A stretch of 64,000 nt of DNA from the IMG/VR virus record IMGVR_UViG_3300037991_004722, positions 1 through 64,000 of that record, one strand, 5' to 3'. The stretch's first letter is position 1. Each line of letters opens with the position of its first letter. Of the stretch, positions 24,701 to 62,844 are shown piece by piece. Source of the stretch: an uncultured virus (IMG/VR IMGVR_UViG_3300037991_004722). Lineage: Duplodnaviria; Heunggongvirae; Uroviricota; Caudoviricetes. The translations under genes were made by a program, and so were the position numbers. The notes under the pieces are model-generated. The model was not told the origin of the DNA, searched no databases, and was given only the letters and a program-made list of their open reading frames with translations.

Positions 24701-27700
24701 TGACTTTATGAATTCATTGATGGGTCAAAAGTTCAGCCAAAAGTTGATTGGTATGTTTGATCACGAAGTTGATGACAACGGTGTTCGTCGATTGACTGCT
24801 ACAGGTGCTGAACAAATTGGAGATAGTTGGCAGTATTACCGAAGGGTCAAAGATCTTCCAAACGGCTATGTTGCCCGACTGTTCGATGAGTTGTGGATTA
24901 CTCTTCACAACTTTTGGAGCAGGCTGCGCAAGCAGCGAGGCGTTCTACCGAAGCAAGTTCGTCAGTTTTGGGACGCCGAGTTTGGCGAACTTCCAAAGGA
25001 TCGTAGATTTGTCGAAGGCCTTGTTGATGCTGCTCGGCGCAAGAAAGGTAAAACCATTGTCGTCCCCGGTGATGAACTTGCAGAAGCTCAGCAGGCTAGG
25101 CCCAGAAAAGTAGGAATGGAGCGCGTTGCTCGTCAAGTAGCCATGGATCCCGATACATTGAGGTCTTTCCTTGGTCAGAAGACGCTCACAAGAGTAGAAG
25201 TTCGAACTGATCCTGAAACTGGTGTGCAGACCCGCATTCCTCGTCGAGTGTATGCTGATTTTAATTATGATCCGCTGGATGTTGGCCGAAAGCTGTTGGC
25301 TTTAATTAAAGTTCAGCCATACAGAAAAATGATTGCCGAAAGAAGCACTGCGACAATTGGTACTGGCAAGTACGCTGTTCCTGTTCACCGTGTAGGCGCT
25401 GTTCTGGAGGCGGCCAAGCGACGACTGACCGATGCTTTGGGGAGCCTTCCTGACAACCTTAAAAGCAGGATGTATCAACGCAATTATCAAAAATCGGACA
25501 AAGGCTTCACTGAACTTAATAACTTGCAGGACGTAACTGAAGCTGACATCAATGCTTTTTCTGAGCGCATTCGGATGGAGGCCGGTCTTCCGCTTCATTC
25601 GAAATTTCAAGATGTGCTTGAAGAAATTATAAACACTACTGAGTTTATTGTTCTCAATGCTCGTGAGCGTGCTGGCTTTAAAACGCTTGTCCAAGAGTTG
25701 GCTGCAAATCCAGCCGGTGACCCCATTCCATCGTCCCTGCTTGATCCAAACGCAAATTTAAAAATAATCAGCATTGCTGAGTACAACAGGGTTTTACAGG
25801 TCGCACAAGACATAGAGGCCAACCCATTAAATCGGATCGATCGAAACTCTGTTCATCCTGGCTATTATCAAACAGTTATAAGATCGCTCAAAAAGCGCAG
25901 CGTTACAGCTTTGTTTGGGCTTTTAGTTGAAAAAGTCGCGCCATTGTTTGAGGCACAAGCGGCAAGAATCAATAAGAAAAACGCTGACCCGGCCCTTGTA
26001 GCTGTCTGGGAGCAGGGAATGCGCAGGCTTGCAGCATCACCCGATGAAATTGCCAAGGCTGCTGAAAGCGGAAAAGACAAAGACTTCTTTGATTTCTACC
26101 AAAGAATGGTTCACAGCTTTACCCCGAGAGTGGCCCTTAACAACCTCAAGTCTCTATTTGATATTGTAGATGAGCTTGAGGGCAACAAGAAACGTCTCGA
26201 TGCGGATGCACTCGCTGCGATTCGTGAAGCGGAAAAAGAAGGCACTCCGCCTCCGCTTCAATTTGGATCACTTGATGAGTTTGATATTGGCGTACTATAC
26301 AAAAAATTAAACTTCATTCAAGAAGTGTTGGATGGATTTTACGGAATGACTCGCCAAGAGCGAGTTGCAATTACCAATCTTCGTGAATTGTCTGAGCGTC
26401 GGTCTGGTCTGACGGAGGCTATGTCTAATGCAGATGCTGCGATTGCCGCCGATGCGCTGCAGATTTTGCATACAGGTCTGGCCGAAAAGAAACATTACGT
26501 AACACGAACTGCTCGTGAAATAATGCGTCGAGCAACAGGATATACAGACCCAGAACTTCCTGCAGGATTCGACAACAGCACAGTAATAGATATTTATGTT
26601 GCTCTGTATACAGGAAATATAGTAAGATTAAAAGCAATAGCGACCCGAATGGGATTCGAGGGCACTTGGCAGGCTAATCTTGTAAATTTGTTTGGTACAA
26701 GAGGAGAAAAGCTTCTGCGCGAGTTTGGCGACACTGAGGCCATGCTTACGAATGTATTGATCTACATGAAAGTCGATGAGGTCATGTTCGGCATCGCAAA
26801 AGATTTAGCTGATCTTGGATACAACACATCCGTGAGAGAACTGATTGGTCGGCAAGTAGAAAGTGGTGTTCCTAGTCTTGATCGGCAAAAGTTCCTTGAT
26901 CGAGTGGCCGAGTACATTAACGATGAGATGCAATTCCAAGTAGGAAACGTTGTCGGGGCCGGTAGGCTCAAAAAAGGTGAAAAGATTTCGCCTGCCGAAA
27001 AATTTGGCCCACTGGACAACCCTCATCGCACTGATTTGGATTCCGGTATTATTTCGAAAATGGACCGCGATGCCAAGGCCGAAGCTGCAAGAATCGTTGA
27101 TCGCCTGGGACTTCGCAGAGAGATGGGCCAGTTTGCTCGTGTTCTTGTTGGTGATGATACGTTTTTGTTGCCAGAGGCCATGATTGAGGGCCTGAATGAT
27201 GCAATCAATGCAACGTATAATATGCCTTCCGGGTTTCAGACTTTATTTAGAGACTTTGGCCGAACCGGCACCGTCGAGTATCGTCTTAACTCAGAAAATA
27301 TTTTGCCGGTAAAGGTTCAAAAATTAAGAGAAATTCTGACAATGTCCAAGAAAGCTGTTGAGCTTATTGCTCATCCAAGAGTTTTTTATAGGCGTTTGTT
27401 GATTGGTGTCGGCGGAATCCCAATGGTTCCCTATATGGCTAGTCTGTTTGTAGGAGGATTAAGCGAAATCCATCTTCCACAAGGCGCAAAAGCCGTAGTT
27501 GACAATGTTGTTGGAGCAGTTCAAACGCCTGCAATGCTGGCAGCAAATAAGCTAAGCGGTCAGCGTGTTGATTTTGTAGCCGGTGTTCTTGCTCGATTGT
27601 ATGGTAACGGATCATACAGGCCACTCACTCGTCCACACGTAACTCCTGATGGTCGAATTTTTACAGCAGACATGGTTGCTAACAATGTTGATGCGTACGG

Positions 27701-29201
27701 ATTTAAAACCGCATTTGCAGAAATGACTGCAGACCCAAACGTCCACAGGCGTATTTTGGATGAGTTTACGAAAGCAAATCCAAAAGAAACTGCAGCGCAA
27801 ATCGGTGGAACCATTGGTGGTCTTCTTGGTGCAGTTTTAGGTCCAACAATGGCAGCCAAGGGTGCGGCAGCAGGCGCTGCAGGGGGAATAACTCTTGGGT
27901 GGTTGCTGACTGAAAACAACGCATTTGACAAAGCGCACAGGTTTTATCGCGAAGTTGCAATCACCATTGATACATACCAGCGACTCAAAGTGTTCATGAA
28001 GGAGTTGGATTCCGGCCTTGATATTCCAGCAGCCTCGAAACGAACGCTTGAAACCAAACTTGACTATGGAAATATGACTAAAACTGAGATGAGCTATTTT
28101 CGAATGGCCTTCGCGTTTTGGACATATTTCGCTCAAGCAAATGGTTTGTTTGCGCGAAGCATTATTGAAAATCCAGATCGAGTAATCGCACAACTTAAGC
28201 TTGCTCGCTCAAGCCAAATAGCTGTGACCAAGGGCCAAGATCCAGACCGTGCGCTTGCGCCGTGGGATCGTTCCAGAATTTTCATTCCGTTTGAAATTGG
28301 TGGACATGCTGTTCGTCTTCCGTACACAAGTGTGGCGGACACCGTTCAACTGTTTATCGACTTCTTTGGTTTTTTTGGAATTGGATTTGGCCCAGAAGAA
28401 ACGACAACTGCACGAATGGCGGTCGTCAACCGGTTAAATCCACACCTTATCGAGGCGTTTAAGCAGACGTACAAAATGGATCCAGGCAGAGGATACGACC
28501 TCGAACGCGCCACCATGCAGGTTCCAGCATCATTAATTCAGTTGGATTACGACATTACTGGTGGGGTTTTGTGGGAAATGCTGGACATTAAATATGTCGA
28601 ATACGACGATTTGAAAAAGGGTTGGGGTTTTGATGAAAACACGGGTGTTCGATTCAACCCGAACAACTTGGAAATGCCTGGCCGTGGTATTTATGTAGCT
28701 CAAAACGCAGCGGCGTACAGCCTACTCATGGGCCTTGCTCAAACGCCGGTTACGGGTCGAATGGGCCGACTCTTTGAGGCTTTTGATCGATCGAATCTTG
28801 GACCTGTAGAGGCAGGAATGAAAGCTGCTGATGTGTACTACCAGGCAGATAAAGAGAAGCCTTTGTTGGCCCGCGTACCGTTCATGACTGAACTCGGCCT
28901 TGTAAAAGGAAGGCGCACCTCTGGGCTTAAGCGACCATCCGATTATGGTATTGGTGGATTAGACACTTCTACTGGTCGCAGATCTATGAGAGAGTATGCT
29001 CGACATATTGAGCCAGACGGAACTTCTTATATTTTGCCATACGATGATTTTTACCCACTGCCTTTATTGAAGATTTTTGGGGCCTCTGCTGTTTTTATTC
29101 AGCCAGAAGAGCGCAGTACAAACAGAAGCCTTAGAAAACAAACTACTGAGATTGAGAAAAATATAGAGCCTGCTATCCGTAAAGCTAAACTTCAAGAGTA
29201 A
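21762..29201 (+). CDS. giant (2479 aa) putative ejection protein
   Basis: uninterrupted ORF, two glycine-zipper hydrophobic segments, last gene of the ejection cluster. Confidence 0.6.
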   Translation: MAEQDDNTVEPPLEFDYGGLPAGAYQEGVPPGYAREDVFSLDKPVEYAQEDRDIAANAAYNSVYGVVSEEHPEADHSELRQRTLAALGGRKYVPGQTYGEEQYVFGDPLDSNLVFAPSVGQMVPRTGALGTIPIYKMQEEASANAMKGMRFDQQVRHMLFADPSPETMMTLKQAVDQRLVDSEGNIVRPPSVEEREYMPDNETLRQAATYVAGAGVGLGAVGGLAVLGPAGAVAGGLLGGMVGSGIGTIGVIGAAGFSSMPEDYTGFDGLQDLVKRTYTLIGFGDDLAGFMATSAPEARDLMVTNVVALAEGLGIAKSNEWLEENKITKLDDISKKGSESIKAIEKEIAKDFIPVGPSINPTFPLMPELGEGTIRKTVEEIGDNFILGLHEIIDEIGRSDEYKSMRSQVRKEFMMEKEIEYDLLSRKTKPTDEDWLGLNLFNQVSEGIATEEDIKPQVSGWIDNMSFNRLHPSLQGEMPNVQVFKTLAITIPPNHSMFSKDMPPNVAAAILAVHDGRSDDEIQNLVNTLPLGFLRNSPGFDVVIEKSLPDFEKVKEWATDTNTFLDEKTGARITRIFEREAFDLTQVPVYMEGHGTLYKRSKNAEIMNWAASIVTALNEIEIDLIPEFLEPLARNLGYPNDLYVPNSAGLDRQMQLGIRDYNLPYLVKLDARIKSGLGGPHLGMQEVARALGHNPDSFAYNFLSAYGFALENFNWERSILGGAARAGRTLWNVPYAYTGFKAAAPGYKLRAAKQNLLTNVSKDSSIDPVAAQHRLFEEILLAQMNKGANPLQDYDKKTGVGISTAQKQLLTDMMEIAGIEPEVVFAAFREASGDTIKLTAATEELVRKLGDNQVMVFRSSEQYGRLHSQLNEMVNEGLISPNDASVFLAQIETQAFKAANSPNTRFYSATEVIDGLELRIDRGIDEQETRLFLNAPEGDNRFTARDGILRSSFEYDENTGKRVISLFTRGDMGDLWSANADFMNSLMGQKFSQKLIGMFDHEVDDNGVRRLTATGAEQIGDSWQYYRRVKDLPNGYVARLFDELWITLHNFWSRLRKQRGVLPKQVRQFWDAEFGELPKDRRFVEGLVDAARRKKGKTIVVPGDELAEAQQARPRKVGMERVARQVAMDPDTLRSFLGQKTLTRVEVRTDPETGVQTRIPRRVYADFNYDPLDVGRKLLALIKVQPYRKMIAERSTATIGTGKYAVPVHRVGAVLEAAKRRLTDALGSLPDNLKSRMYQRNYQKSDKGFTELNNLQDVTEADINAFSERIRMEAGLPLHSKFQDVLEEIINTTEFIVLNARERAGFKTLVQELAANPAGDPIPSSLLDPNANLKIISIAEYNRVLQVAQDIEANPLNRIDRNSVHPGYYQTVIRSLKKRSVTALFGLLVEKVAPLFEAQAARINKKNADPALVAVWEQGMRRLAASPDEIAKAAESGKDKDFFDFYQRMVHSFTPRVALNNLKSLFDIVDELEGNKKRLDADALAAIREAEKEGTPPPLQFGSLDEFDIGVLYKKLNFIQEVLDGFYGMTRQERVAITNLRELSERRSGLTEAMSNADAAIAADALQILHTGLAEKKHYVTRTAREIMRRATGYTDPELPAGFDNSTVIDIYVALYTGNIVRLKAIATRMGFEGTWQANLVNLFGTRGEKLLREFGDTEAMLTNVLIYMKVDEVMFGIAKDLADLGYNTSVRELIGRQVESGVPSLDRQKFLDRVAEYINDEMQFQVGNVVGAGRLKKGEKISPAEKFGPLDNPHRTDLDSGIISKMDRDAKAEAARIVDRLGLRREMGQFARVLVGDDTFLLPEAMIEGLNDAINATYNMPSGFQTLFRDFGRTGTVEYRLNSENILPVKVQKLREILTMSKKAVELIAHPRVFYRRLLIGVGGIPMVPYMASLFVGGLSEIHLPQGAKAVVDNVVGAVQTPAMLAANKLSGQRVDFVAGVLARLYGNGSYRPLTRPHVTPDGRIFTADMVANNVDAYGFKTAFAEMTADPNVHRRILDEFTKANPKETAAQIGGTIGGLLGAVLGPTMAAKGAAAGAAGGITLGWLLTENNAFDKAHRFYREVAITIDTYQRLKVFMKELDSGLDIPAASKRTLETKLDYGNMTKTEMSYFRMAFAFWTYFAQANGLFARSIIENPDRVIAQLKLARSSQIAVTKGQDPDRALAPWDRSRIFIPFEIGGHAVRLPYTSVADTVQLFIDFFGFFGIGFGPEETTTARMAVVNRLNPHLIEAFKQTYKMDPGRGYDLERATMQVPASLIQLDYDITGGVLWEMLDIKYVEYDDLKKGWGFDENTGVRFNPNNLEMPGRGIYVAQNAAAYSLLMGLAQTPVTGRMGRLFEAFDRSNLGPVEAGMKAADVYYQADKEKPLLARVPFMTELGLVKGRRTSGLKRPSDYGIGGLDTSTGRRSMREYARHIEPDGTSYILPYDDFYPLPLLKIFGASAVFIQPEERSTNRSLRKQTTEIEKNIEPAIRKAKLQE

Positions 29202-41584: not shown

Positions 41585-42442
41585 CTAATCGTCTAACAAG
41601 GACTTCTGATTGTCGTCCTCTTTTGCAGATTGTACAACTTCTTTATCCTTACTATCATCCATCAAGCCATCTATTTGTTCCGACAAGATTCCCATAGTAT
41701 CTGATTCGTCGTGTTGACTGTTCACATCTATGAACTTCAACTCCTCTGTTGGGGTGTCTTGTTTGCCGTCGTGGTCATATGCGTTTTGCATATCATCGTT
41801 CATCGGTACGATGCCGCGAGCGAACGCATACCGGAGCCCGGTTTTAAGCGCCATCTCGATTGGCCACTGACCCCACGGCGACTGGTTCTTGTTTCGCTTG
41901 TAGGCGTCTGAGTTTGCTCGCCGCTTTTCTATGTCGGCCTTGCGAATGACAACGAAGTCTTTGGTGCCATCTTGGTAGAAGGCGACGACGTACACTGCCT
42001 TAAGTGTGGTCCATGACTGCTCGGCATTGAGGTCTGGTACGTGCCTCAGGTTTGGTTCAGTGCCTTCAATGACGTGAAACTCATCGGTATCAAACACGGC
42101 CTTGGTCCTGAGTCGAACTCCGTTCTTTGCTGCAAGCTTAGAGAACCCTCGATGAGAAACCTGCCACTGGAGGCTCTTTCCTCGTGGCAGCAGGTATACA
42201 TCTGGCAGCGGTCCTCCAGGCATAAGTCCAGTCATTGCAGAAAGTGCAACTGCTTGAGCAACTGATGCCGGGTCACACCCGTACAGTCGGTCATTTGTTT
42301 GTGCGGCCTGACGGAAGGCAAGGGCTACCCGCCCAGCGGCTTGTAGTCCGTTTTCTGTGCCAACCATTGCTTGAAGGAAGTCGGACGCTTTAGATTCGAC
42401 TACGTTCCTAAACTGATGTGCCGGGTGAAGTGCATTGCTCAT
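41585..42442 (-). CDS. recT: RecT-family single-strand annealing protein
   Basis: CDPASV..A...GL.P...YLLPRG..QWQVSHRG, PWGQWPIEMALKT. Confidence 0.88.
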   Translation of the reverse strand: MSNALHPAHQFRNVVESKASDFLQAMVGTENGLQAAGRVALAFRQAAQTNDRLYGCDPASVAQAVALSAMTGLMPGGPLPDVYLLPRGKSLQWQVSHRGFSKLAAKNGVRLRTKAVFDTDEFHVIEGTEPNLRHVPDLNAEQSWTTLKAVYVVAFYQDGTKDFVVIRKADIEKRRANSDAYKRNKNQSPWGQWPIEMALKTGLRYAFARGIVPMNDDMQNAYDHDGKQDTPTEELKFIDVNSQHDESDTMGILSEQIDGLMDDSKDKEVVQSAKEDDNQKSLLDD

Positions 42443-43353
42443 TTGCTATCTCCTGTGTATTGGAACCTGAAGGTTCTAGTTGCATCGCCTTCAATAAGAT
42501 ATTGCTTAGCGAGTTCTGGGTGTTGTTGCTCGAAAGTAGAACGATCAAACCGGGTTCTGGGCTTGGACTGAGACCATGTGGCCACCCCGGCGATTCCGTA
42601 TGATGAACCGATTGATTCCTTGAGTTGATTTTCAAGATGCTTCTTGCGTCGTTCAAGCTCTGCGTACTCTGCGCGAACGTTCTTGAGTTCAGATGCGAGC
42701 GCAAGATGAGACTCCTGGGGCTCGATAAACTCCTTGCTTTCCTGCTTGAACAGCTTGGCAAGAGACTTTGAGCATGCATTTGATCCATCAACTTCTGGTG
42801 GCGTTCCTTGCTCGATGTGCTTTTTGTACCAGTCGCGAGCAAAGGTCATAATCTTATCTTCGAGCCTGTCGTCACGATATATCTTGTACGATCGGTATTC
42901 ATCAGAAATCGTAGCAAATGCAGCAAGGTCGCACCGGTCGTTATTGGTGACCGCCATCTGCCAAATACACTGTGCTGCGTAATACGGCGGAACGTTGCTT
43001 GTGTCAGAGCGACCCCATTTGTGGTCGAACTTTCGAGTCGACTTAATCTCAAGCAACCACTCACCTTCGCCAGAGTTGACGAAAAAGTCAGGCCGGGCAT
43101 GCATCCAAGATTCTGGACCAATGATTGGGTCGGCCTCGTACTCTGGCCCCTTTTTGATTTGAACATTGTTCAAGTGCGCGTAGTGGGCACCAATCGCTGG
43201 TTCCAAAATGTGTCCGCGAGCCGTAGCCGCAGTAGAAGAAGATTGCGTCAGACCGTGCATTCGGGACCAAACGTCCCATGGGCTTGACCATGGCGAAAGG
43301 CCTAAAATGGCTGCGATGCTGCTGCTTCCGATTGTTGGTGATTGAATCTCCAT
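42439..43353 (-). CDS. YqaJ-like (lambda-exonuclease family) exonuclease
   Basis: IGSSSIAAILGLSPW, RGHILEP, ARPD, LLEIKS, YAAQCIWQMAV. Confidence 0.9.
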   Translation of the reverse strand: MEIQSPTIGSSSIAAILGLSPWSSPWDVWSRMHGLTQSSSTAATARGHILEPAIGAHYAHLNNVQIKKGPEYEADPIIGPESWMHARPDFFVNSGEGEWLLEIKSTRKFDHKWGRSDTSNVPPYYAAQCIWQMAVTNNDRCDLAAFATISDEYRSYKIYRDDRLEDKIMTFARDWYKKHIEQGTPPEVDGSNACSKSLAKLFKQESKEFIEPQESHLALASELKNVRAEYAELERRKKHLENQLKESIGSSYGIAGVATWSQSKPRTRFDRSTFEQQHPELAKQYLIEGDATRTFRFQYTGDSK

Positions 43354-43378
43354 TGTGCTCCTGATTGTCTGCTTGTGT

Positions 43379-43407
43379 ATGGTAAGTGTGCTATGAAGTG
43401 ATGTCAA
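43379..43407 (-). promoter_or_regulatory. sigma70 promoter for the exonuclease/RecT operon
   Basis: TTGACA-17 nt-TACCAT. Confidence 0.8.
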
Positions 43408-43469
43408 TACCATCACTTAATCTATCTTTCTAAAACAAGTCGGACATAAAATGTCCGGGGGGGTCTTCA

Positions 43470-52975: not shown

Positions 52976-53004
52976 TCTCTACCCAGTAAGGAACAGAGTG
53001 TCAA
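52976..53004 (-). promoter_or_regulatory. sigma70-type promoter
   Basis: CACAC-TTGACA-17 nt-TAGAGA. Confidence 0.55.
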
Positions 53005-53012
53005 GTGTGCCA

Positions 53013-54225
53013 CTACTCTACTGAAGTGTCGCGGTCTTCTTCAAGCATAAGGCTGTCGTCGTCGCGATGACCGAACCCAAGGCCTCTCGATGCCTTAAGC
53101 TCTCGAAGCAGAGTGTTGTTGTCAATCTTCCAAACTATCATGGTCTGAACCACGCTCCATCGATTGTCTGTGATGTGGTGAACCAAGTCACGGGGGCCGT
53201 GTGCAAGGTCGTAGTTGTCGTCCTCAGTGCGGACGTAAGGCTCATAAAAGTATGGTTGAAGCATCATGCCTCCATGGTTGGTGCTCACTCTTACAAACGA
53301 ATGGTGAGCAGTTTTCGGATATGGGTACGCTAAGTGGGCGGGTAATCCAGGCCCCCCGCCCTTACCGGCGCTATGACTTAGACCATTCGGTCACCTCCTT
53401 TGAGTGTTGCGGAGCGTCCTCGGCGTCACTCGGTTGATTGTTGGGTAGTGTTCGTTGTTCGGTCTCCCGGTACATTACCGTGCCGCACTCTCCGCATCCG
53501 ACATCGGTCCATGCTCTGAAGTTTACTGTGTATGTTTCGCCGCACTCGCATGTGATGTCGCAGATGTATTTTCCCGTGAATGGGTCATCATTGATTTTGT
53601 GAAACATATCGTAGAGGCGTTTCTTTCTTTTGTTTACCGGCGTCACCCGCACTCGTTTGAGTTCTTTGCTCCGGTCGATCTTTGAGAAACGCAAGTAAGA
53701 TTGGATGATGTATTTCATGTTGTTGCTCGTCTTGTGTTGGTGAAGCGGTGGTGCTTCATTAGGGAGCACGAAGCCCAGCCGCGATGGCAACGTCGACGTG
53801 TGCAGGCATCAGGTCAGGGAACCTGCACACACCCTTCATGTAGGCCTGCTCAAGCACGGCGGTCTCCAACCGCCGACGCTCTACCAGCCTGACCACCTTG
53901 GCGAGGTTCTCGTCGCTGAGTGTTCTGCGACCATTGAACCAATCGACCAACATGTCGAGGGGTTTGTTGTCCACCTCAAACGCAGGGGGCATCACGCACC
54001 CGTCGCACTTTCCGCACTTCTCCATCACTCACCTCCTTCGTCTTTGGTGCGCTGCCAGGCAGCAAATACATCGCCAAGAGTCTTGCCTTCCGGGTATGAC
54101 TGCGCGAGATAGTCCTCAGCACGCAGCCCTTTCTGCGGCGTGTCCGAGTACGGGGCACTGGCATCATCATCATTCCAGTCACACTCATCGTGAATGGTGA
54201 GATCGTTTTCGTCTGGTGTGAGCAT
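53013..54225 (-). CDS. four small hypothetical genes (53013-53267, ~53371-53718, 53759-54025, 54025-54225)
   Basis: co-oriented ORFs, some with CxxC pairs. Confidence 0.5.
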
Positions 54226-54920
54226 TACTCACCTCTCAGTTTCTTGGTGTTGCCTTGCGAGTCGATGCCCGCGCTCAGGTTCATACTCTTTCCGGCATCG
54301 TAGCCAGCGGCACTGTGGCCGTACTCACTCGAAGCCTTTGCGCTGCCGAATGAGAAGTTGCTGTCCACCCACTCGCTCACCGCTTGACTGCGGCTGCGGA
54401 CCAAGGCAAAGCCCTGCACGTTGTCGCGCTCGGCATCCTTGCGGATGTGGTACAGCTTGTGCCTCAGGCCATCCACTGCGCTGCGCCGGAAGTTGTTGCC
54501 GAGTGTGCGCTTGCCCGGCATGCCAGCAGGAAACTGGCTCGTGTACTCACGGGCCTGGTTCTCAATCTGGCGCTCGCAGATAGAATACAGGTACTTCATC
54601 AGTTCAATGTCAGTGCGGTGCCCGTAGATGTGCAAGGTCTGGCCAATGTGGTGGCCTGACAAGTAGGCCATGCGGCAGTTGCAGTGTTGCGCGATGGCGT
54701 TGGCAAGGAGCCTGCGCCACACACTTGAACGGGTCTGAATGCTCTGCTGCTCCATTGGGTCATGTTCAGCAGCACGGTCCACGTCGATGCTCGCCATGTC
54801 GATGGCGTGGGCGGCCATCATTCGGCTGGCGAGCTTCGCGGCGGTCTCCCCCTCAGGGGTGCCGTCTTGGTTCCGGGCGAGGCGCATCAGCTTTTCAATC
54901 TTGGCAATGATTGGGTTCAT
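54225..54920 (-). CDS. DUF2786-family protein
   Basis: KIEKLMRLA...PEGETAAKLASRMMAAHAI. Confidence 0.8.
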   Translation of the reverse strand: MNPIIAKIEKLMRLARNQDGTPEGETAAKLASRMMAAHAIDMASIDVDRAAEHDPMEQQSIQTRSSVWRRLLANAIAQHCNCRMAYLSGHHIGQTLHIYGHRTDIELMKYLYSICERQIENQAREYTSQFPAGMPGKRTLGNNFRRSAVDGLRHKLYHIRKDAERDNVQGFALVRSRSQAVSEWVDSNFSFGSAKASSEYGHSAAGYDAGKSMNLSAGIDSQGNTKKLRGE

Positions 54921-55087
54921 CGCTTGCCTCCTTGGGTGTTGATGGATTGCAGGAGAGCGTCATACGTCTTCTGGTTTCCGATGATGTCTCGCTCTTTACG
55001 AGTCAGGTGTTGAAAGTTGTCGGACACGTCCTCCAATGAGTACCGGAGCAGCGCGTCCTTGATTGCGTTCAGTTCTTGTTGGGTCAT
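54917..55087 (-). CDS. hypothetical 56-aa protein
   Basis: MTQQELNAIKDALLRY..., GGAG SD, ATGA overlap. Confidence 0.6.
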   Translation of the reverse strand: MTQQELNAIKDALLRYSLEDVSDNFQHLTRKERDIIGNQKTYDALLQSINTQGGKR

Positions 55088-55140
55088 GATTCTCCCTTAA
55101 CCGGTTCGGTGAAGTATGGCAAGTGTGCAGTTGATGGTGA

Positions 55141-55162
55141 AGGAAAGCCCCCCGAAGGGGGC
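55141..55162 (-). terminator. UUCG hairpin terminator
   Basis: GCCCCC-TTCG-GGGGGC-TTTCCT. Confidence 0.65.
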
Positions 55163-55169
55163 GGTTGGT

Positions 55170-57223
55170 TTACTCCTCACCGGATTCGGCGAGCATGTCG
55201 GCGAAAGCACGAGCCCAGCAGAGAAGAATCTCGCGGTGGCTCAGAGGCTGCTCGACCCCGTCCTTCGGTTCCTTCCATGGCAGGACTACCCAAGGGTTCT
55301 GTTGGATGCGCTCCCAAGTGTCGGAAGTCAGGAATGCGAACGACCAGCCAGGGTTGTCGGGCGCGGTGACCATGACGCTGCTTTCAGGATGCTTGCCAAA
55401 GGTGAACAGTGCCGATGCGTCGGGATGCTCGAAGCTCACACCATGGCGAGACATTTGAAGGCGGGACTTGCGGAAGCCCAGCTTGCTGAGCCGAGCGGAC
55501 ATTTGACGATTTGTGATGGGTTTGATGGGACACCTCCTGTGTGTCTGGGGTTGGTTGGTTTGCCTCTCACCCTACAGAACGAGAGGGATTATTCTCATGG
55601 ACATAGGTCAGTAGTCGTACCCGTCGATGGGTCCGTCTTCGACGGAGTCGAGTTGAGGAAGCGTAAGCTCCTGCGGGCATCCGCTCTTGCACACTGGCTT
55701 CCCATCGTGGATCTCAATCCAGTCTCCGCACTTGCGGCACTTATCTTCGACCTCGACCATGGTCGGGTTGGGCATGTGGCACTTGCGGCACACATGCAGG
55801 TCACCCCAAAATGTATCGTAAGCGTTGCAGCATTCAGTCAACAGCATCACTCACCTCCTTTAGAGAAGCCGGCGTCCTTGGCGAGGTCCCATGCAGCGTT
55901 TCGCAGGTCCGCTTCAGCCTGTGTGTCATGTCTCGGTTCTTTACCGAAGACTTCAACCCACGCGTCAAACATCGCCATGTTGGAATCCCACTTTTCGTGA
56001 GTCGCGCAACAGCCGTGTCGGTAGTCAGTCGTTGGCAGTGCCGCGTATTTCTTGTTCTGCTCATCAATCCATCGCAACTGGCTATCGGTGCCCCACGTTT
56101 GGATGACACGAATGAATGCATTCGCGAGTTTCTGTACGTCTTCCATCACTCACCTCCCTTGCTAAGTCGTACGTCTGAATGTTTGCTAAATGCGATGATG
56201 AATGGGGCGGCCATGAACAACGGCAGCGCCATGCAGAAGAGGGTGTGAAGGTCGTTGGGGTCAATCATTTGTTGCTCCGGTTGGGGGCTTGCGCCCCAGG
56301 TTGAGGGTTCACCCTTGGGGGCACTTGGTTCCTTGCGTTGTCTCCCACTCGCGGCAGCCTTCGCAGATGTAGCCGCCGTCGATTCGGCTCGTGGCGTTGA
56401 AGGCGATGGGCTCAAGCAGTGGGTTGCTGCACCCTTCGGTGGTGCATCGGAACTGGTGGGTGTGGTTGAACTTGACGATACCGGCAGCGATGGCCGCGGC
56501 CAGTCGGGTATTGTCTCGTGGGTAAAGCATGTTTGCTCCTGTGGGGCACGGGGCCCCGGTTCGGGTTGAGGGTTTAGGCGGTTCGGTTTCTTGCTTCTTC
56601 AAGCAATGCCGCGAGTTCTTCCATGGTCCAGTCTGGCGTCGGTCCTCCGGGCATTAGTCCTCCTCGATGACCGTTACGGTCACGGTGTCGGGGTCGGCCT
56701 CGCAATACTCGCTGACGTTGTCTTCAAGGGCTGGCTCGCCACGACCGATAGCCGCGACGACGCGAGCCTTGAGGGTCTCGGGGTCAATGTTTGTGTCAAA
56801 GTCAATGGTGATTCGGATGGTGTCCATGGTATTTGCTCCGGTTGAGGGTTAGGCGGGTTCGACTGCGGTTGCCCAGCGAAACAGTGGCTCAGGGAGGAAG
56901 CCGCCTGCCCTGAGGTGTTCGGCCATCTCATACAATGATTGGTAGCGGTCACGATTCTGCCCTCGGTGATTCCTTTCATAGCAGGCGTCATACGAGAAAT
57001 ACTTGGCGAATGACGGCTGGCTCTCGTGAATCAAGACAAGCACGGCATTCTCCCCGAGAGTCTCTCCCCGGTTGCGCCACTCCTCACCGGAGAGAAACGT
57101 GACACCCTCCAAGTTCAGGTCCGGTTCGATGGAGGCGATGCGCTCAACGATGCGCGTGGCAGCTTTGAGTGAGTCGCCGGCCAAGTGCGACAGGTTGGCG
57201 GTTCGGATGGTCGATGGAATCAT
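55170..57223 (-). CDS. run of small early genes (55170-55502, 55608-55847, 55847-56146, 56146-56268, 56309-56530, 56574-56654, 56654-56827, 56849-57223)
   Basis: most have a GGAG/GGAGGTGA SD and are bounded by repeated junctions. Confidence 0.6.
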
Positions 57224-57268
57224 GGTTGCTCCGGTTAAATGGTGGGGCGCGGGGCCCCGGTTGAGGGT

Positions 57269-57715
57269 TTAGTAGCCAGCGGCTACAGCGTTGGCGTCGT
57301 AGTACTCGTGGCTGTCCTCGGTCCATTCGGGCCAGCCGGGTTGTTTTTCCCAAGTGGTCACACACGCGTGGGCAGTGGTGCCGTCGTAGTCGGTGAATGC
57401 TTCCCACCGTTCACCAGTCGGGCGGTTCACTGTCGCCGATCGAAGCCTGTCCACAGGGCAGAACTGGACGAACTGGTTGGACATGTAGCCATCGCAGTCG
57501 CTGCCTTCATTGAAGTAGGTGCGGGTGACTTGTTGGCCGTCGTAGGTCCACTCGATGATAGTCCGGTCGTAGCCCTCATCGGTGGGCGTGAATCGGTGGT
57601 GGCGCAAGGTCTGGTCGGGCTTCAGTTCGATGACGACATCGCCGCCGTTCACGTAGTCCTTGAATCGCACCTTGGTGGGAAGTTGCAACATGACTGTACA
57701 CATTCGCATTTTCAT
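57269..57715 (-). CDS. hypothetical early protein
   Basis: 148 aa; PTDEGY...DCDG motifs; GGAG SD. Confidence 0.7.
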   Translation of the reverse strand: MKMRMCTVMLQLPTKVRFKDYVNGGDVVIELKPDQTLRHHRFTPTDEGYDRTIIEWTYDGQQVTRTYFNEGSDCDGYMSNQFVQFCPVDRLRSATVNRPTGERWEAFTDYDGTTAHACVTTWEKQPGWPEWTEDSHEYYDANAVAAGY

Positions 57716-57757
57716 GGTCGCTCCAATGGGGCGCGGGCCCCGGTTGTGGGTTGGGGT

Positions 57758-57841
57758 TTAGTGGCGCGGTGTTCCACAGCAACGGCAGCGTGTGCGGGTT
57801 CCGCTGTTTACTGCTCCGCACTTGAAGCATTTCCAGTACAT
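57758..57841 (-). CDS. 27-aa RanBP2-type zinc-finger microprotein
   Basis: MYWKCFKCGAVNSGTRTRCRCCGTPRH fits W-x-C-x2-C-x3-N-x6-C-x2-C; GGAG SD; bounded by cassette repeats. Confidence 0.8.
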   Translation of the reverse strand: MYWKCFKCGAVNSGTRTRCRCCGTPRH

Positions 57842-57876
57842 GGGGTCTCCAATGGGGCACGAGGCCCCGGTTAGGG

Positions 57877-58581
57877 TTAGGAAGCGTTGCGTTTGGGCCA
57901 TCGACCCGTCTTACCGTCTACCAGTTGCCAAAACGTCTGACAGTCGAACTCCACCCAACCAAGGTCGACCGCACCCTGAAGAACTTCCTGGGGTGTTTTG
58001 CCTTCGGAGTATGTGGGAAACTCGCGGATATCGAACTTCCATGCGTTTGGGCGCGGGTCCATGGTGAAGAAATACGCGGACGGCAACGTGTAGTCGTCGT
58101 CGATGTACGTGTGGTAGATGTTGTATGGAATCACCTGTTGCAGCCCTTCGGGGTGGTCGTCGTATTGACGGACGATGCAAGCAAGGTCGGGGGCCATATA
58201 TTTTTTCAGCCAAGGCATGGGTCGCTCCGGTGATGATAGTGGGGCACGGGGCCCCGGTGAGGGGTAAAGGGTTTACGAGTGGGCCAGTGCGCTACCAAAG
58301 GCGCGATACCATGCGACACAAAGCGGATTCGAGAGTTCAGCTTCGGGCACAGTCCAGTCAACGGGCGCGGCATCCTGAGCATGCAATGCCGCTGCGCGTA
58401 TCTTCGCGAGGCTCGCTTGGACGTTGTACACGCTCGCAGGCATGGCCTTGCCGCTGTCTACGTGAGTGAGGCTGTAGATGCTGCGGCTGCCGGTGATAAC
58501 CAGACCAGCTACACCTGAGGGGCGAGCCCGCACGGTATCAACGCCGCGCGGTCCATCGGTCGCAATTTGAACTGTCTTCAT
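57877..58581 (-). CDS. two hypothetical early genes (57877-58218, 58273-58581)
   Basis: GGAG SD and repeat-bounded. Confidence 0.65.
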
Positions 58582-58608
58582 GGGGTCTCCAGAGTGAGGG
58601 GTGAGGGG

Positions 58609-59310
58609 TTAGGCCGCGCGCTTGGTAGCCTTGCCGGGGCTGTGGTCGATGAAGCCAACGACCGGGCCCGCTTTGGAGCCGTCGCACAACCGGCAGGTGT
58701 TGCAGGTTACAATCTCGGGCTGCAGTTGAGCCGGGCAAACGATGCCCCGGTTGCCATCGGGGGTGTCAAAGGTCCGGCCCTCGAAGTCTTCGGGCAGTAC
58801 AACCACGGCCCGCCACCCGTCCGCAATGGCGGCATCGGCCTGCTCCATCGTCTCGCATGAGGCCATGATATGACCCTTCCAACGCTTCGCAATGTCCATG
58901 GCCCACCCGTGGGTGTAGCCAACCAAGGCGAGCCCTTCGTCCCTGACGGCCTTGCGAATGTACGCCCCATCAATAGGGGAGAGGGCCGCCGGGTCGCCGA
59001 TGGAGCCGAGCCGAACCATGCGAGCGGCCCGCGATGCATTGGCCAGCGCACCCCGGAGGCTGTACCGCTTACCCTTTGCGTGAGCCTTGACCATCGCGGC
59101 ATGCGAGAACGACGGGGTCCCATGCTGCGAATAGCAAAGGGGCTTATCTCCACCGCCCTCACCGCCGTGCTTTTTGTGCAGCAACGGACAGCCGACGGCG
59201 CGGCATGAGTCCAGCGATTCCTCACGGGTTGCCCCGATGGCAATGGTCGGGACGTTGCCTGTCTTGATGTTCTTGGTGGTAGCGGTCGCGAGGTAAGAGG
59301 GGAAGGGCAT
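58609..59310 (-). CDS. Cys-rich phage protein (gp88-like, possible Fe-S/radical-SAM-related)
   Basis: NIKTG, SC..GCPL, CYS, RLGSIGD, GYTH, IVCPAQ, TCNTCRLC. Confidence 0.6.
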   Translation of the reverse strand: MPFPSYLATATTKNIKTGNVPTIAIGATREESLDSCRAVGCPLLHKKHGGEGGGDKPLCYSQHGTPSFSHAAMVKAHAKGKRYSLRGALANASRAARMVRLGSIGDPAALSPIDGAYIRKAVRDEGLALVGYTHGWAMDIAKRWKGHIMASCETMEQADAAIADGWRAVVVLPEDFEGRTFDTPDGNRGIVCPAQLQPEIVTCNTCRLCDGSKAGPVVGFIDHSPGKATKRAA

Positions 59311-59332
59311 GGGTGCTCCGGTGGTTTGTGGT

Positions 59333-59503
59333 TTAGTTACGGTCCCAAAGAACTTCGACAAGCGCGCCAAACAAGTGGACCGAGAGGTAGCCGACCTCTT
59401 CATGCGGGGCGTCGAAGTTGTGAAATACGCCGAAGGGTGTTCGGCCTTTGGTGGGTCCATATGAAAGAAACGTGAGACGCGAACCGAAAAGGTTGATGGA
59501 CAT
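59333..59503 (-). CDS. first early gene, 56 aa
   Basis: CCGGAGC SD then MSINLFGSRLTF. Confidence 0.6.
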   Translation of the reverse strand: MSINLFGSRLTFLSYGPTKGRTPFGVFHNFDAPHEEVGYLSVHLFGALVEVLWDRN

Positions 59504-59799
59504 GAGGGCTCCGGTGGCCCGTACTGTGGGCCAGTTGTCCCCCCTTTTTGGACAGCGAAAAGTAACGGGGGGAACGGGGTTTATTTGAAATGGCCTAACC
59601 GTCCTGTACCTTTTTCTAAAAAAAGTAAACGGGTATACGGTAAGGGTAGAAAGGGAATTTCGGGGGATTGAAAAGGTTCGGCAATAGGTACGGGACGGTT
59701 GGGACAAATCGAGATTGTGCAGGTTTACCCGTGGGTTTTCGTGGGTCCATGGTTCGGGACAGTTTGAACACTTGGCACACCCCTCCGGTTTACGTACAT

Positions 59800-59828
59800 C
59801 ACTTAACCACGTTCGCCGGGTATGGCAA
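59800..59828 (-). promoter_or_regulatory. leftward early promoter
   Basis: CCTGCCCCCC-TTGCCA-17 nt-TAAGTG; same 16-mer as at 61082-61097. Confidence 0.6.
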
Positions 59829-60077
59829 GGGGGGCAGGGTTCAGGACAGGGTACGGGACACGGGGGCCAAAGACCCGCCGAAACTCACCGGGAACCGGAC
59901 AGAATCTGTCACGGGGGAGGGTGCGTCTGGTCGCGCGGGTCGTTCGCGGTCGTTTTTAAAACCCCATCGGCTTAGCCATATCCAAGGTTACAAGCCGGAT
60001 ATCACGCGCCGGGGTTGACAGGTCAAACGAACCGCTGAGGTATCACGCGAGGGTTGAGATTGAGGCCCGACGGACGG

Positions 60078-60109
60078 AAAAAACCGCGTCAGTCTGAGCT
60101 AACCCGCGT
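60078..60109 (-). terminator. intrinsic terminator closing the large RNA
   Basis: CGCGGGTTAG-CTCAGA-CTGACGCGG-TTTTTT. Confidence 0.6.
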
Positions 60110-61005
60110 TGCCCCTGCATAGTTCGCGGGTGTTGTACGGGTTCCGGGTGAATGCCCCCCAACGGTCAAGCGTTCCGGGGGCGGTAGAGGTCCGCCACGC
60201 GCCGGGCTCAAACCCCCTCGAAACGCAGGGGGAGCCCAGGCGCGGGCTATGTAAACGTGCGCCCTGTGCTATCGGCGGTGCCAGCCCGGACGCCCGACTG
60301 ACTGCGTACCCTGAGCGTGTCCCCGTCAGGGAAGGGTAATGGTGAGGAGAGGGGGCCCCTAAGCCCCGTCTTCCAGTACTTGCGTTCGAACCATTAGGGT
60401 GATTCTACTAACGTACCGCTGTCATTTGATACGCTCCATAGCGTGCCCCCACGAGGGGCCGGGGATTCGAACCCCGCGTCTGTTGACTGCCTCAAAAAGT
60501 GGCGGTGATTTTCGCGCTCACCGGGGCGCACTGCTACCCGTGGCCACGGCACACGGGGCCCCCGGATATCGCACCGGGGCGGGCGGCTCGTTTTTTAGAC
60601 TGTGGAGAGCTATCCACCGGCCTTGTTTAGGTGGCCCCTTTAGCGGGGCCGGGTATCGGGTCCCCCTCGCGTCAGGCTATGCCGCCGGGGGTCATGGTGT
60701 CAGGTGTCTTCAATCACCTATGCACATGGGTGGACTCTTCACCGATTCGGCTCACCCGCTTGCTGGGGTCGTGGCCACTTGACGCTCCTACCTTCGCTCC
60801 TGCTGTCGCTCACTTGAGCCCCGACCGTGGCCGGGTTCCTCGCTCGTGTTGTTGCTTGGCTTCGCTTGTGACTTTCAGCGGGCGACAGAGTCCTCCCCTT
60901 AGTTGTCATCGGTGGCCGGGTTCGTGTGCCCGGCTTGCGCCTCGGAATGCTTTGGCCCTGCAGGCCGCCGCTGATTCGAGTTTGCACCCATTGTCTTATT
61001 CGAGA

Positions 61006-61017
61006 TTTGAAAGAGCG
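61006..61017 (-). promoter_or_regulatory. boxA antitermination element
   Basis: CGCTCTTTCAAA about 35 nt after the predicted start site. Confidence 0.65.
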
Positions 61018-61058
61018 TGTCTGGTTTGTTTCCGGGGTGTTTCCCTTTCCACACAAAC

Positions 61059-61087
61059 AGCTTATGGCCGTATGACAGGTGTGGCAA
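61059..61087 (-). promoter_or_regulatory. sigma70 promoter driving the large RNA
   Basis: TTGCCA-17 nt-TAAGCT. Confidence 0.75.
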
Positions 61088-61270
61088 GGGGGGCAGGCAA
61101 AGAAAGTTTGCTAAATCCAGTGAAAACCAAGGTTGAACCTCGATTATCGCTGGTGAAAAAAAATCTGATTTTGTGCCGTTTTTTTTCTATTCGCTGCACT
61201 CGCGTGCGCGTGGTTCCTTTTATGCCCCCCCCTTTTTCTGGTTTTCTTTGGTTTTTTCCCCTTGCCCCCC

Positions 61271-61299
61271 TTGACGGGTGTGGCGGGTGTGACTAAATA
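61271..61299 (+). promoter_or_regulatory. rightward promoter
   Basis: TGCCCCCC-TTGACG-17 nt-TAAATA. Confidence 0.55.
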
Positions 61300-61305
61300 C
61301 CGTGT

Positions 61306-61635
61306 ATGACTTTGACTCTCGCCTTTCGCGGCCTCGCCGCAGACTCCCCCCGACAGCGCGCCCGTTGCTCTGTTACGGGTCGTTTCGTGGCATGGGTCAA
61401 GGCCGCCGCGCTCCGCGTTGCAGGTGCCCCCCGTGTGGTGGTGGTGCCGTCTACCGTGGAACCCGATACCGCCGATGCTGCCCCCGTGGTGGCCCCCGTG
61501 GTATCCGTGGCCGCCGCTATCGCTGCCCCCGTGGTAGCCGTTGCGCGTGCCGTTGCTGCCCCTGTGGTGGCCGTGGCGTCAACTATCATCGCTCGCGTGG
61601 GGCGGTGGTTTCGCCGTGGGGGGTGTACCGTGTGA
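61306..61635 (+). CDS. possible leaderless Ala/Val-rich protein with APVV repeats
   Basis: ATG 6 nt after the -10 box, no SD. Confidence 0.45.
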   Translation: MTLTLAFRGLAADSPRQRARCSVTGRFVAWVKAAALRVAGAPRVVVVPSTVEPDTADAAPVVAPVVSVAAAIAAPVVAVARAVAAPVVAVASTIIARVGRWFRRGGCTV

Positions 61636-61832
61636 AGCGTATGCCATGGCCGCAACCGACCGCCCCCCGTGGTTTTTTGTGGCGCNNNNNNNNNNGGGGG
61701 GGGGGGGGGGGGTGGTGCGTCTCGCTTCCGCTGCTGCCGAAGGCGTCCCCCCCGTGGATTCGTTTTGTTTTTCGTCTCGGGCCGCGCTGGGTTCCCCCCT
61801 GGGGTTTTACGGAAAATAGAGATAATCGGCTA

Positions 61833-61861
61833 TTGACGGACACCTTTCGCAGACATAGAAT
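61833..61861 (+). promoter_or_regulatory. sigma70 promoter
   Basis: TTGACG-17 nt-TAGAAT. Confidence 0.8.
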
Positions 61862-61878
61862 CGGCATTCGAGGTATCA

Positions 61879-62844
61879 ATGAATAAATACGTGTGTTTGG
61901 CTCATCGCTTTCCTGCGGCGGGTATAGAAGGTGTTCTTGGGGTTCCAGTACAGAGCGAGGCCGAAATAGAAGAATACAGGTCTCATATGGATGACGTATC
62001 GCCGAATCAGACCATCAGGTTTGTTCGTCTGACATCAATACCGGACCATGCGAATAAGCATCTGAAAGCAGGTGACGTAGTGGTCAAATACGAGGGACTG
62101 AGCGAGAAGTTTCTTGATGTTCTTCGTCCAGTAGAGACTGCGTACCTGCTCAGTAAGTACAAGGCCGGGGATATTGATTGGGAGCATGCGGAGGACATTC
62201 GTCGTTATTCGTTGGAGAGCTTTCAGTGGCAGCTTGGCTCAGATGGATACCAGTTGGCGATATCGGACCCGCATGGTCGTCTTGTTGTTTTGAGGGCGCA
62301 TCACGGTACTCCGAGGCGTCTTTTTCCGACTGCGTACAGCATCTTGCAGGAAACAGAGAACGACAAGAAGCTTGTGGCGGATGATCCGTATATTGGTCGT
62401 CGTGTGTCGGTTTCTCACAAGCAGAAGTGTGCATGGGCGACAATGCGCTTCATTCACTACTACTTGTTGAAGTATGGCCCGATTGTGGACTCAAGCGTTC
62501 TGTATGAGTTTAAGAAGAAGATACGTCGGCACAATCGCGTATACAGCGACTTACCTAAGTTTGAATTTGCTAACTTTGTTCGTCTGCATACTCGCAGGAC
62601 GCACAAGCATTCTCAGGACTTTTGGCGTCGAGTGCGCGTAGAGTACCTGGAAGATCCTGACTCATTGCCGCGACCGTTGTCGTTTATTGCGTCGAAGCGT
62701 TCTGTGCGCTGGGTTCGTCTGACTATGGAGGAAGTTGATCAGGTATTGAACCATGTTGAGTGGGATGAGTGGAACGAGTTCAGGGATCCGCTTCACTTCT
62801 CGAATGTTCGAAATAATTCATCTGGATCTGCGGAGTGGAACTGA
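61879..62844 (+). CDS. hypothetical protein
   Basis: 321 aa, GAGG SD, upstream promoter. Confidence 0.7.
   Translation: MNKYVCLAHRFPAAGIEGVLGVPVQSEAEIEEYRSHMDDVSPNQTIRFVRLTSIPDHANKHLKAGDVVVKYEGLSEKFLDVLRPVETAYLLSKYKAGDIDWEHAEDIRRYSLESFQWQLGSDGYQLAISDPHGRLVVLRAHHGTPRRLFPTAYSILQETENDKKLVADDPYIGRRVSVSHKQKCAWATMRFIHYYLLKYGPIVDSSVLYEFKKKIRRHNRVYSDLPKFEFANFVRLHTRRTHKHSQDFWRRVRVEYLEDPDSLPRPLSFIASKRSVRWVRLTMEEVDQVLNHVEWDEWNEFRDPLHFSNVRNNSSGSAEWN

Follow-up and report, generated by a model that had tools for sequence, protein, structure and literature searches.

The first 64,000 positions of the uncultured phage record IMGVR_UViG_3300037991_004722 (IMG/VR; 73,969 bp, rated complete by CheckV and labeled G000 here), referred to below as the window, include a minus-strand array of small early genes that are joined by short repeated linkers. 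Each linker leads from the stop codon of one gene to the Shine-Dalgarno (SD) sequence and start codon of the next, and most contain a small GC-rich hairpin. We favor, with moderate confidence, the reading that these are portable intercistronic hairpin-plus-SD linkers of a polycistronic early operon, which act in the mRNA and also provide joints for the recombination of single genes. The linker repeat itself is real and non-random.

Repeated linkers between early genes

Ten successive minus-strand junctions (59532-56266, within the 59560-56140 interval that was read) are built on one plan. The stop codon is followed by a G-free, C/A-rich spacer, often (A)ACCCTCAACC, then by an optional hairpin, GGAG(C/A), five or six nucleotides and ATG, for a total length of 22-54 nt. 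Hairpins of the form GGGGC-N4-5-GCCCC are present at six of the ten junctions, where they start 8-16 nt past the upstream stop codons and carry five different loops: CCCGT (twice), CTCGT, CCGC, CCCGC and GCAA. Gene A is preceded by a compensated variant, in which both arms differ from the other stems yet are complementary and pair in the minimum free energy structure. Three junctions (A/B, B/C and G/H) lack a hairpin, and genes H and I overlap. The initial annotation had classed these junctions as having full, variant or absent hairpins, and all of its assignments hold on the minus strand, with its numbers marking the low ends of the GGAG(C/A) boxes. It had also placed a related string at about 60552-60565. 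The string is present with two mismatches at 60548-60565, but its arms are non-complementary, so it is a different element.

The pattern GGGGC-N3-6-GCCCC occurs seven times in the whole record, always between 56284 and 60367. First-order Markov simulation predicts a mean of 0.19 occurrences for the genome (maximum of 3 in 300 simulations) and 0.15 for positions 55001-61500 alone (maximum of 2 in 1000 simulations). When up to three mismatches are permitted, the 15-mer has 11 matches compared to 1.17 expected, a count that none of 100 shuffles reaches. Repeat finding returns a 35-nt family with five copies.

Related contigs were collected by pattern and protein searches of IMG/VR and by one pattern scan of metagenomes. 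Broad pattern scans of metagenomes and GTDB genomes yielded at least 126 and at least 121 stretches. Most of these were chance-like single matches and were dropped, and only contigs with two or more units were kept. Ten contigs (G000-G004, L021, L024, L028, L031 and L115; L034 is identical to G000) constitute family A, in which 39 hairpins were examined and 33 are followed by an SD, a start codon and an open reading frame (ORF) of at least 20 codons. The stem is identical and its arms are perfectly complementary in all 33 units, around 14 types of loop. Three other families are represented among the matches listed by L082/L083, L103/L104 and L063 (family B), by L057, L107 and L183 (family C, which encodes a DUF7227 protein of 32% identity) and by L064 (family D). 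The search pattern demanded the stem and GGAG, so the finding of families B-D was ascertained by design; the extra units within them were not. Across the four lineages, the stem sequence is invariant in more than 60 units among the matches listed.

Two side observations concern the hosts of such units. A Gammaproteobacteria metagenome-assembled genome (MAG) includes L183/L184, a family C contig that has linker units and encodes a DUF7227 homologue; this is a weak hint as to host range, and the phage contig may be mis-binned. One Spirochaetaceae MAG (L161, L193 and L209) carries three paralogous genes, whose proteins start with MKVIDY or MKAIDY, and has AAACC-GGGGC-N3-GCCCC-AAGGAG directly before each start. 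SD-abutting hairpins are therefore also found on bacterial or prophage DNA.

Some relatives dispense with the hairpin. G005 (L012/L019) and L013 keep early gene B, with DUF7227 proteins that are 76-80% identical, and have no GGGGC..GCCCC hairpins. They use repeated leaders instead of hairpin linkers. A TTGAC -35-like box is found in two of the three G005 leaders inspected and in both L013 leaders for which upstream sequence was seen, and two G005 genes have the same A-rich leader. Leaders of this kind standing where relatives have hairpin linkers show that, within the lineage, one linker type can take the place of another.

The hairpin and the downstream gene

The spacing between hairpin and SD is tightly restricted. 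In family A, the hairpin lies 3 nt from GGAG in 23 of 33 units, 4-5 nt away in five, and 11-16 nt away in the remaining five (long form). Measured in the same way, the distance is 2 nt in all 32 units of families B-D, where a purine-rich SD begins 1 nt past the stem. Family B (L079-L083, which are one 54-kb metagenome contig, L103/L104 and L063) has at least 14 intergenic modules of approximately 190 nt each. Each consists of a long T-tailed terminator, a conserved promoter-like block, a GGCGGC..GCCGCC hairpin, a GGGGC-loop-GCCCC hairpin and AAGGAGG, in this order. The conserved block presumably resembles the promoters of single-subunit phage RNA polymerases, and the modules have the appearance of a full terminator-promoter-leader cassette system. 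Here, SD spacing is still constant, even though the upstream stop codon lies about 150 nt away from the hairpin and a complete terminator stands between them. This constancy, which extends across lineages sharing almost no genes and persists past a terminator, therefore indicates that the hairpin belongs to the downstream gene.

The hairpins could instead serve the upstream gene, either by holding off 3'-to-5' exonucleases or by acting as pause sites or weak attenuators and so grading the operon's expression along its length. Their proximity to upstream stop codons suits this explanation, as does the description of PeSL (promoter-early stem-loop) elements, whose stem-loops are often poly-G followed by poly-C, which cut reporter expression like a strong terminator (PMC2839356, in part). 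We nevertheless find it unlikely. Distances to the SD are far more constant than those to the stop codon, and the family B hairpin resides downstream of a separate terminator and the promoter-like block. Terminators in G000 and family B have long T-runs, whereas no T-run follows any linker hairpin; A(Y)T-GGAG follows instead. Intrinsic terminators, which need a GC hairpin and a direct T/U-run, were rejected as a candidate identity for the linker hairpins. A scan of positions 53000-62500 listed 18 T-tailed terminator-like sites, none of which is a linker hairpin, and four promoter-like sites (3.3 expected), none of which is in a linker. Because the linkers have neither kind of site and a terminator-like hairpin lies beyond the array, we interpret the array as a single operon in which the hairpin is a putative SD-adjacent RNA element. 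This terminator-like hairpin is the probable end of the early transcription unit.

The initial annotation had raised the possibility of an RNA-level role for the repeats, which is supported by the nature of the loops. Among the 14 four-base loops in family A, 12 are UUCG (nine, UNCG class) or GCAA (three, GNRA class) when read on the sense strand and none fits these classes on the antisense strand, compared to approximately 5% of all four-base words; the 12 units are distributed over six contigs, and loop copies within one genome (four in G003) are not independent. G000 itself has only one such tetraloop hairpin (56284-56297, GCAA). A sixth g..c pair is present in six tetraloop units and in none of the other 27 family A units. 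Another lineage has the UACG loop twice and UUCG once. Compensated stems occur at 59516-59532 and in L057/L107. C(UUCG)G with its C:G closing pair is described as an exceptionally stable RNA tetraloop that was first found in T4 mRNA (PMC4371310, in part). The constant stem, strand-specific tetraloops, extra g..c pair and compensated stems together argue that the element is selected as sense-strand RNA, and the sequence evidence points to an RNA element tied to the translation start of the downstream gene.

We propose that the hairpin functions at the mRNA level as one component of the downstream gene's translation-initiation region. Its most likely role would be that of a compact 5' protective element, in which the hairpin and a bound ribosome block decay that spreads from the upstream cistron. 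With a decay barrier of this type at each linker, every cassette could be expressed independently of its neighbor. Geometry and analogy suggest this function. A bolder possibility is that the invariant, SD-abutting stem may enhance translation at the level of the ribosome by stacking on the SD/anti-SD helix. The idea that the hairpin is an insulator that keeps the SD open was rejected, as partition-function folding reveals no difference; it would be possible only under co-transcriptional folding.

A third explanation is that a trans-acting protein binds or cleaves the hairpin and thereby processes early mRNAs or sets their timing; a phage endoribonuclease, a translational repressor or a host factor would be candidates. 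The invariance of the stem, in more than 60 units from four lineages, exceeds structural need, the hairpin adjoins the SD, and the array encodes small zinc-binding proteins of unknown role (E and J). Set against these points, the five loops on six G000 hairpins speak against a protein that reads the loop, Pfam, PHROGs and profile searches of the array genes gave no RNA-binding or RNase family, and G005 and L013 keep early gene B without hairpins. We give this explanation little credence. RNase III processing sites of the kind found in T7-type early RNA have a double-stranded stem of about 20 bp or more. Linker stems have only 5-6 bp, and this candidate was rejected.

Gene turnover at the linkers

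Gene gain and loss that breaks at the repeats had been proposed as a check on their role in exchange, and such events are found both in relatives and in population contigs. G004 matches G000 closely in the proteins of genes B (93% amino acid identity), H (93%) and J (90%), but at only 47% in C. Its C-to-H interval contains no D, E, F or G, and other sequence stands in place of gene I. DNA homology between the two genomes forms three blocks (59310-58594, 56820-56650 and 56577-56282). The last of these, like the homology to L115, ends at the 3' edge of the GCAA hairpin. Considering all relatives, nine of 13 match ends (at 80% identity or more) fall within linkers ±6 nt, and linkers make up 13% of the array. 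Of the other four ends, two fall inside genes and two lie no more than 7 nt from a gene boundary. Gene families also adjoin different neighbors and junction types in different genomes. Gene F, for example, comes after a hairpin linker in G000 but after an overlap junction in G003 (60% identity) and a hairpin-less linker in L021, and the gene G homologue in L028 has linkers on both flanks. Gene B is the only array gene that is kept in all relatives.

Contigs from four marine runs that match positions 55500-61500 at 85% likeness or more reveal six joints, five of which are in the array. Joint 56837-57257 (X6) skips gene G and has 13 letters common to both sides. Joints 57877-58618 and 57877-58632, from two runs (X4/X5), skip C and D. 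Joint 57667-58578 omits C, D and E together with the initial 16 codons of F, and joint 59289-59594 skips gene A. The sixth joint (60254-60281) is located in a non-coding stretch outside the array. Contigs also diverge at 58244 (X4), 57243, 57262 and 57848, all of which are inside linkers. The X6 joint displays a linker deletion of the kind that gives a hairpin-less junction of the G/H type. The G/H linker has 13 letters in common with the start of the F/G linker, and corresponds to a linker deleted between two AACCGG repeats. Whole-cassette variants are present in the four marine samples, with two forms together in X4 and X5, and turnover is therefore ongoing. As a separate observation, G000 alone has the initial 16 codons of its gene F; similarity to G003, to L021 and to an X6 contig sets in at 57666 or 57667.

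Because near-identical linkers of 25-50 nt adjoin all cassettes, they would also be the sites where homologous or microhomology recombination adds, deletes and swaps genes. We conclude that the linkers mark, and probably promote, single-gene exchange. As exchange sites, the repeats fit the initial annotation in that gene gain and loss breaks at linkers; exchange is not confined to them, since the breakpoint at 57667 inside gene F recurs. The RecT and lambda/YqaJ-type exonuclease that it had invoked are both present and pass their profile cut-offs. The genome is also integrase-free, as it had stated, with no match to the tyrosine recombinase family PF00589 in the complete 73,969-bp record (the control matched in 14 of 14 genomes). 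The phage RecT and exonuclease probably drive gene exchange at the linkers, although we infer both the enzymes and the direction of recombination.

A more far-reaching reading, which we regard as possible rather than probable, is that the array is a recombinase-free analogue of an integron. In this case, the hairpin-plus-SD linker would be both expression signal and capture site, with RecT and the exonuclease acting on it. The 13-50 nt of common linker may be used for excision of cassettes and for their capture from co-infecting phages. Excision might possibly proceed through mini-circles, as proposed for PeSLs.

Several observations weigh against the proposal that the linkers are functional mRNA elements and recombination joints. 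Thermodynamics lend it no support: isolated linkers fold at about -10 to -13 kcal/mol, with z-scores of only -0.17 to -1.34, and 18-84 of 200 shuffles fold as well. With 100 nt of context on each side, the pair probability is at least 0.88 in four hairpins and 0.01 in two of the six. Predicted SD accessibility, from partition-function folding of the natural junctions, is no better with the hairpin than without it. The stem scarcely varies and so offers hardly any real covariation, and its constancy could reflect the shared ancestry of copied linkers. Orthologues of C, F and H occur with the hairpin, with another loop or without a hairpin, so any individual gene can do without the hairpin. The early promoter was not located. 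Regarding exchange, several joints rest on short sides (21-30 letters, 85% likeness) and are rated weak, the 57667 breakpoint inside gene F recurs in three comparisons, and selection for intact genes would by itself place breakpoints at gene boundaries. Within a genome, loops do not resemble one another significantly more than they do between genomes (531 of 5000 permutations), and thus give no sign of frequent intragenomic conversion. Homogenization of the flanks within genomes is likewise not significant (168 of 2000 permutations).

Points of this kind would suit a hairpin that has no function of its own, in linkers whose likeness comes solely from the copying and recombination of cassettes with flanks attached and whose breakpoints are set by selection for intact genes. 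Hairpins are gained and lost at orthologous junctions, their folding is unremarkable, and the hairpin-less junction is a linker deletion. We doubt this explanation, which must contend with perfectly complementary arms in all family A units despite 14 loop types, with UNCG and GNRA loops strongly enriched on one strand (12 of 14 compared to about 5% of four-base words), and with SD spacing that is fixed across lineages with almost no common genes.

N4-type early promoters are used by a virion RNA polymerase and have a hairpin with a 3-nt loop a few nucleotides upstream of the start site. A DNA-level role for the linker hairpins, as promoters of this type for an injected polymerase or as folded single-strand recombination sites like attC, would draw on the presence of two giant ORFs (2479 and 2243 aa) in the 74-kb genome, on the restriction of hairpins to the first-expressed region and on the cassette turnover seen at them, but is very improbable given a loop bias that is specific to the mRNA-sense strand, a start site past the hairpin that, in the N4 layout, would leave the transcripts of 23 of 33 units without the conserved SD, 15-nt hairpins that are far smaller than attC sites, and searches that detected no RNA polymerase family and no integrase. 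G000 loops are 4-5 nt long, and the giant ORFs are unassigned in a genome where no polymerase family was found. The single-subunit RNA polymerase family PF00940 has no match in G000 or G003, though the control genomes of that search cannot give a signal, and no RNA polymerase emerged when the large ORFs were searched against Pfam, PHROGs and PDB.

Array genes, genome setting and known systems

Features of the array are collected in Table 1. Among its 12 genes, only B and E reach a curated Pfam threshold, and gene L matches only a PHROG of unknown function. The other nine have no family at the thresholds used in Pfam, PHROGs and further profile searches. The initial annotation had called the cassette genes anti-host; they bear no mark of such a function, and ten of the 12 have no family above threshold.

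Table 1. Linkers, genes and associated features in the window, listed along the minus strand, with the recombination genes last
Feature	Position	Strand	Details
Variant hairpin GGCCC-ACAGTAC-GGGCC	59516..59532	-	3 nt upstream of gene A SD (59508-59512)
Gene A	59333..59503	-	56 aa, no family
A/B linker	59311..59332	-	No hairpin; C/A-rich spacer, GGAGC 59315-59319
Gene B	58609..59310	-	233 aa, DUF7227/GP88-like (PF23872, 56.8 bits)
B/C linker	58582..58608	-	No hairpin; GGAGA 58586-58590; G004 homology stops at 58594
Gene C	58273..58581	-	102 aa; 47% identity to G004 counterpart; skipped with D in X4/X5 contigs
C/D linker	58219..58272	-	Long form: hairpin 58241-58255 (CCCGT), 12-nt spacer, GGAGC 58224-58228
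Gene D	57877..58218	-	113 aa; missing from G004 B-to-J interval
D/E linker	57842..57876	-	Hairpin 57854-57868 (CTCGT), ATT, GGAGA 57846-57850; pair probability 0.9
Gene E	57758..57841	-	27-aa RanBP2-type zinc ribbon (PF00641, 27.5 bits, cut-off 27)
E/F linker	57716..57757	-	Hairpin 57728-57741 (CCGC), ATT, GGAGC 57720-57724
Gene F	57269..57715	-	148 aa; breakpoint 57667 inside
F/G linker	57224..57268	-	Long form: hairpin 57244-57258 (CCCGC), 11-nt spacer, GGAGC 57228-57232; pair probability 0.99
Gene G	56849..57223	-	124 aa; skipped in X6 contig
G/H linker	56828..56848	-	No hairpin; CCCTCAACC then GGAGC 56835-56839
Genes H and I	56574..56827	-	57 aa (H, 93% to G004) and 26 aa (I); TAATG overlap
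I/J linker	56531..56573	-	Hairpin 56543-56557 (CCCGT), ACA, GGAGC 56535-56539; pair probability 0.96
Gene J	56309..56530	-	73 aa; 90% to G004; also in L115 and L034
J/K linker	56269..56308	-	Hairpin 56284-56297 (GCAA, GNRA loop), CAACC, GGAGC 56274-56278
Gene K	56146..56268	-	40 aa; last gene with hairpin-type linker, GAGGTGAGTGATG overlaps thereafter
Terminator-like hairpin	55147..55162	-	T-rich tail; from sequence scan
RecT-family annealing protein	41585..42442	-	TIGR00616, 68.2 bits, cut-off 52.65
Lambda-exonuclease-family nuclease	42439..43416	-	TIGR03033, 79 bits, cut-off 68.05

Structural genes (terminase, major head, internal-virion and others) lie on the plus strand of the first 38.4 kb or so. 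On the minus strand, read from 59503 to 38539, the small ORFan genes precede genes for a methyltransferase, primase/helicase, RecE/lambda-type exonuclease and RecT. That the minus strand is the coding strand of the array is indicated by Pfam and PHROGs matches, which fall only on its ORFs (DUF7227, the RanBP-type zinc ribbon and DUF7168/DUF2786), whereas long plus-strand ORFs match nothing. A DNA search with G000 found no close cultured phage relative, and its major head protein attains only 21-24% identity, in two records. ARAGORN detected no tRNA or tmRNA. There is no Rfam match in the whole window at gathering thresholds or in 55000-62000 at E values up to 1.

A second standard junction is used between 49488 and 56156 on the minus strand, where 11 overlapping stop/start linkers have the form GAGGTGA..ATG. 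Six of these are the identical 13-mer GAGGTGAGTGATG, the plus strand has none, and overlapping junctions of this type also occur in G001-G003. The genome thus has two successive zones, the first with hairpin linkers and no coupling, the second with translational coupling. All perfect 5-bp, all-G/C hairpins with loops of 3-6 nt in the 74-kb genome (13 registers) are located within 55147-61328, a region of 57-60% GC compared to approximately 47% for the structural genes.

Between the divergent minus-strand early genes and the plus-strand genes is a GC-rich stretch of about 1.7 kb (59600-61300) that has no credible ORFs and could be a large non-coding RNA, a leader or an origin region. It is 81.6% identical to G004 across 629 nt (61105-60485), and population contigs carry indels of one, two and three letters in it. 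A T-arm-like string is found near 60460-60480 despite the absence of Rfam, tRNA and tmRNA matches. A block of about 75 nt (60182-60254) is the sole part of this stretch that is also kept in the distant G003 (78.7%) as well as in G004, and a look-alike in G001 was spotted by eye only. The giant ORFs are both on the plus strand, at 21762-29201 and at 64614-71345 of G000. One follows an internal-virion protein that has a peptidase domain, within the block of virion genes. They have no Pfam, PHROGs or PDB-sequence match except one sub-threshold DUF5591.

In a full-text literature search by hairpin strings, the UUCG-loop string occurs in two papers and none of the matches listed describes the linker itself, and literature on phage intergenic stem-loop repeats yielded nothing closer than PeSL and start-associated sequences (SAS). 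The SAS of Cluster K mycobacteriophages is a conserved 13-bp motif at the translation start, with a function that is described as unknown and thought to be linked to translation (PMC3203893, in part). Like the linkers, it is a start-adjacent motif, about half of whose copies have an inverted repeat directly upstream (extended SAS, ESAS); all copies share one orientation, and presence differs between orthologues (PMC3203893, in part). ESAS has imperfect 17-bp arms and a 4-13 bp spacer compared to the perfect 5-6 bp arms in G000. The sequences and hosts are unrelated, and cassette exchange at SAS is not a claim of the portion of that paper used here (PMC3203893). The C(UUCG)G hairpins of T4 are similarly tiny and very stable, with a C:G closing pair, and this loop is found in nine family A units and more in other lineages (PMC4371310, in part). 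In contrast, G000 loops are mostly 5 nt long, one being GNRA, and the hairpin is part of a repeated linker with fixed SD spacing.

The 5' untranslated regions (UTRs) of ompA and papA reportedly stabilize mRNAs through a 5' stem-loop and a ribosome-binding site (Emory 1992, Arnold 1998 and Bricker 1999, as cited in PMC3997798). Like the linkers, they place a hairpin close to the 5' side of the ribosome-binding site, where it would protect the downstream message, and the two-hairpin leaders of family B have the same layout. They are UTRs of primary transcripts, whereas the element described here is internal to a polycistronic RNA, so that processing or a barrier effect must be assumed. The linker could represent a natural, compact design for context-independent operon expression, of practical interest for synthetic operons.

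Integron attC arrays are alike in their single orientation, promoter-less single genes, short, imperfectly repeated palindromes and gene-by-gene turnover. G000 differs in having no tyrosine recombinase (PF00589), and its palindromes of 13-16 nt lack attC architecture. Its exchange looks like homologous or microhomology recombination, with 13 common letters at one joint. Should the integron-analogue reading prove true, the linker would be a standardized plug-in slot for early genes across a marine phage lineage. The ongoing turnover of cassettes could be tracked with long reads.

PeSLs of T4-type phages are repeated intergenic modules that extend from a stop codon to an SD and start codon and include a stem-loop with a G-run and a C-run (PMC2839356, in part). 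As in G000, the modules cluster ahead of small ORFan genes within an early region of high plasticity (PMC2839356 and PMC4122927, each in part), and they delimit the insertions, deletions and replacements that distinguish close relatives (PMC2839356, in part). The differences are that G000 linkers have no sigma-70-type promoter and no T-tail on the hairpin, that they measure 22-54 nt rather than about 100 bp, and that their genes, to judge from sequence, are co-transcribed, whereas each PeSL gene has its own promoter. The phage is also not T4-like by the genes seen. Because the defining promoter is absent and the hairpin lacks a terminator tail, the array falls outside the PeSLs proper and is a promoter-less variant that recombines like one. 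The motif could be used to find fast-evolving early phage genes, for host takeover or counter-defence, in metagenomes. The idea that regulatory linkers are also gene-shuffling joints would extend from T4-like myoviruses to an unrelated, uncultured marine lineage, in a stripped-down form that has neither promoter nor terminator and retains only a tetraloop-class hairpin and a ribosome site.

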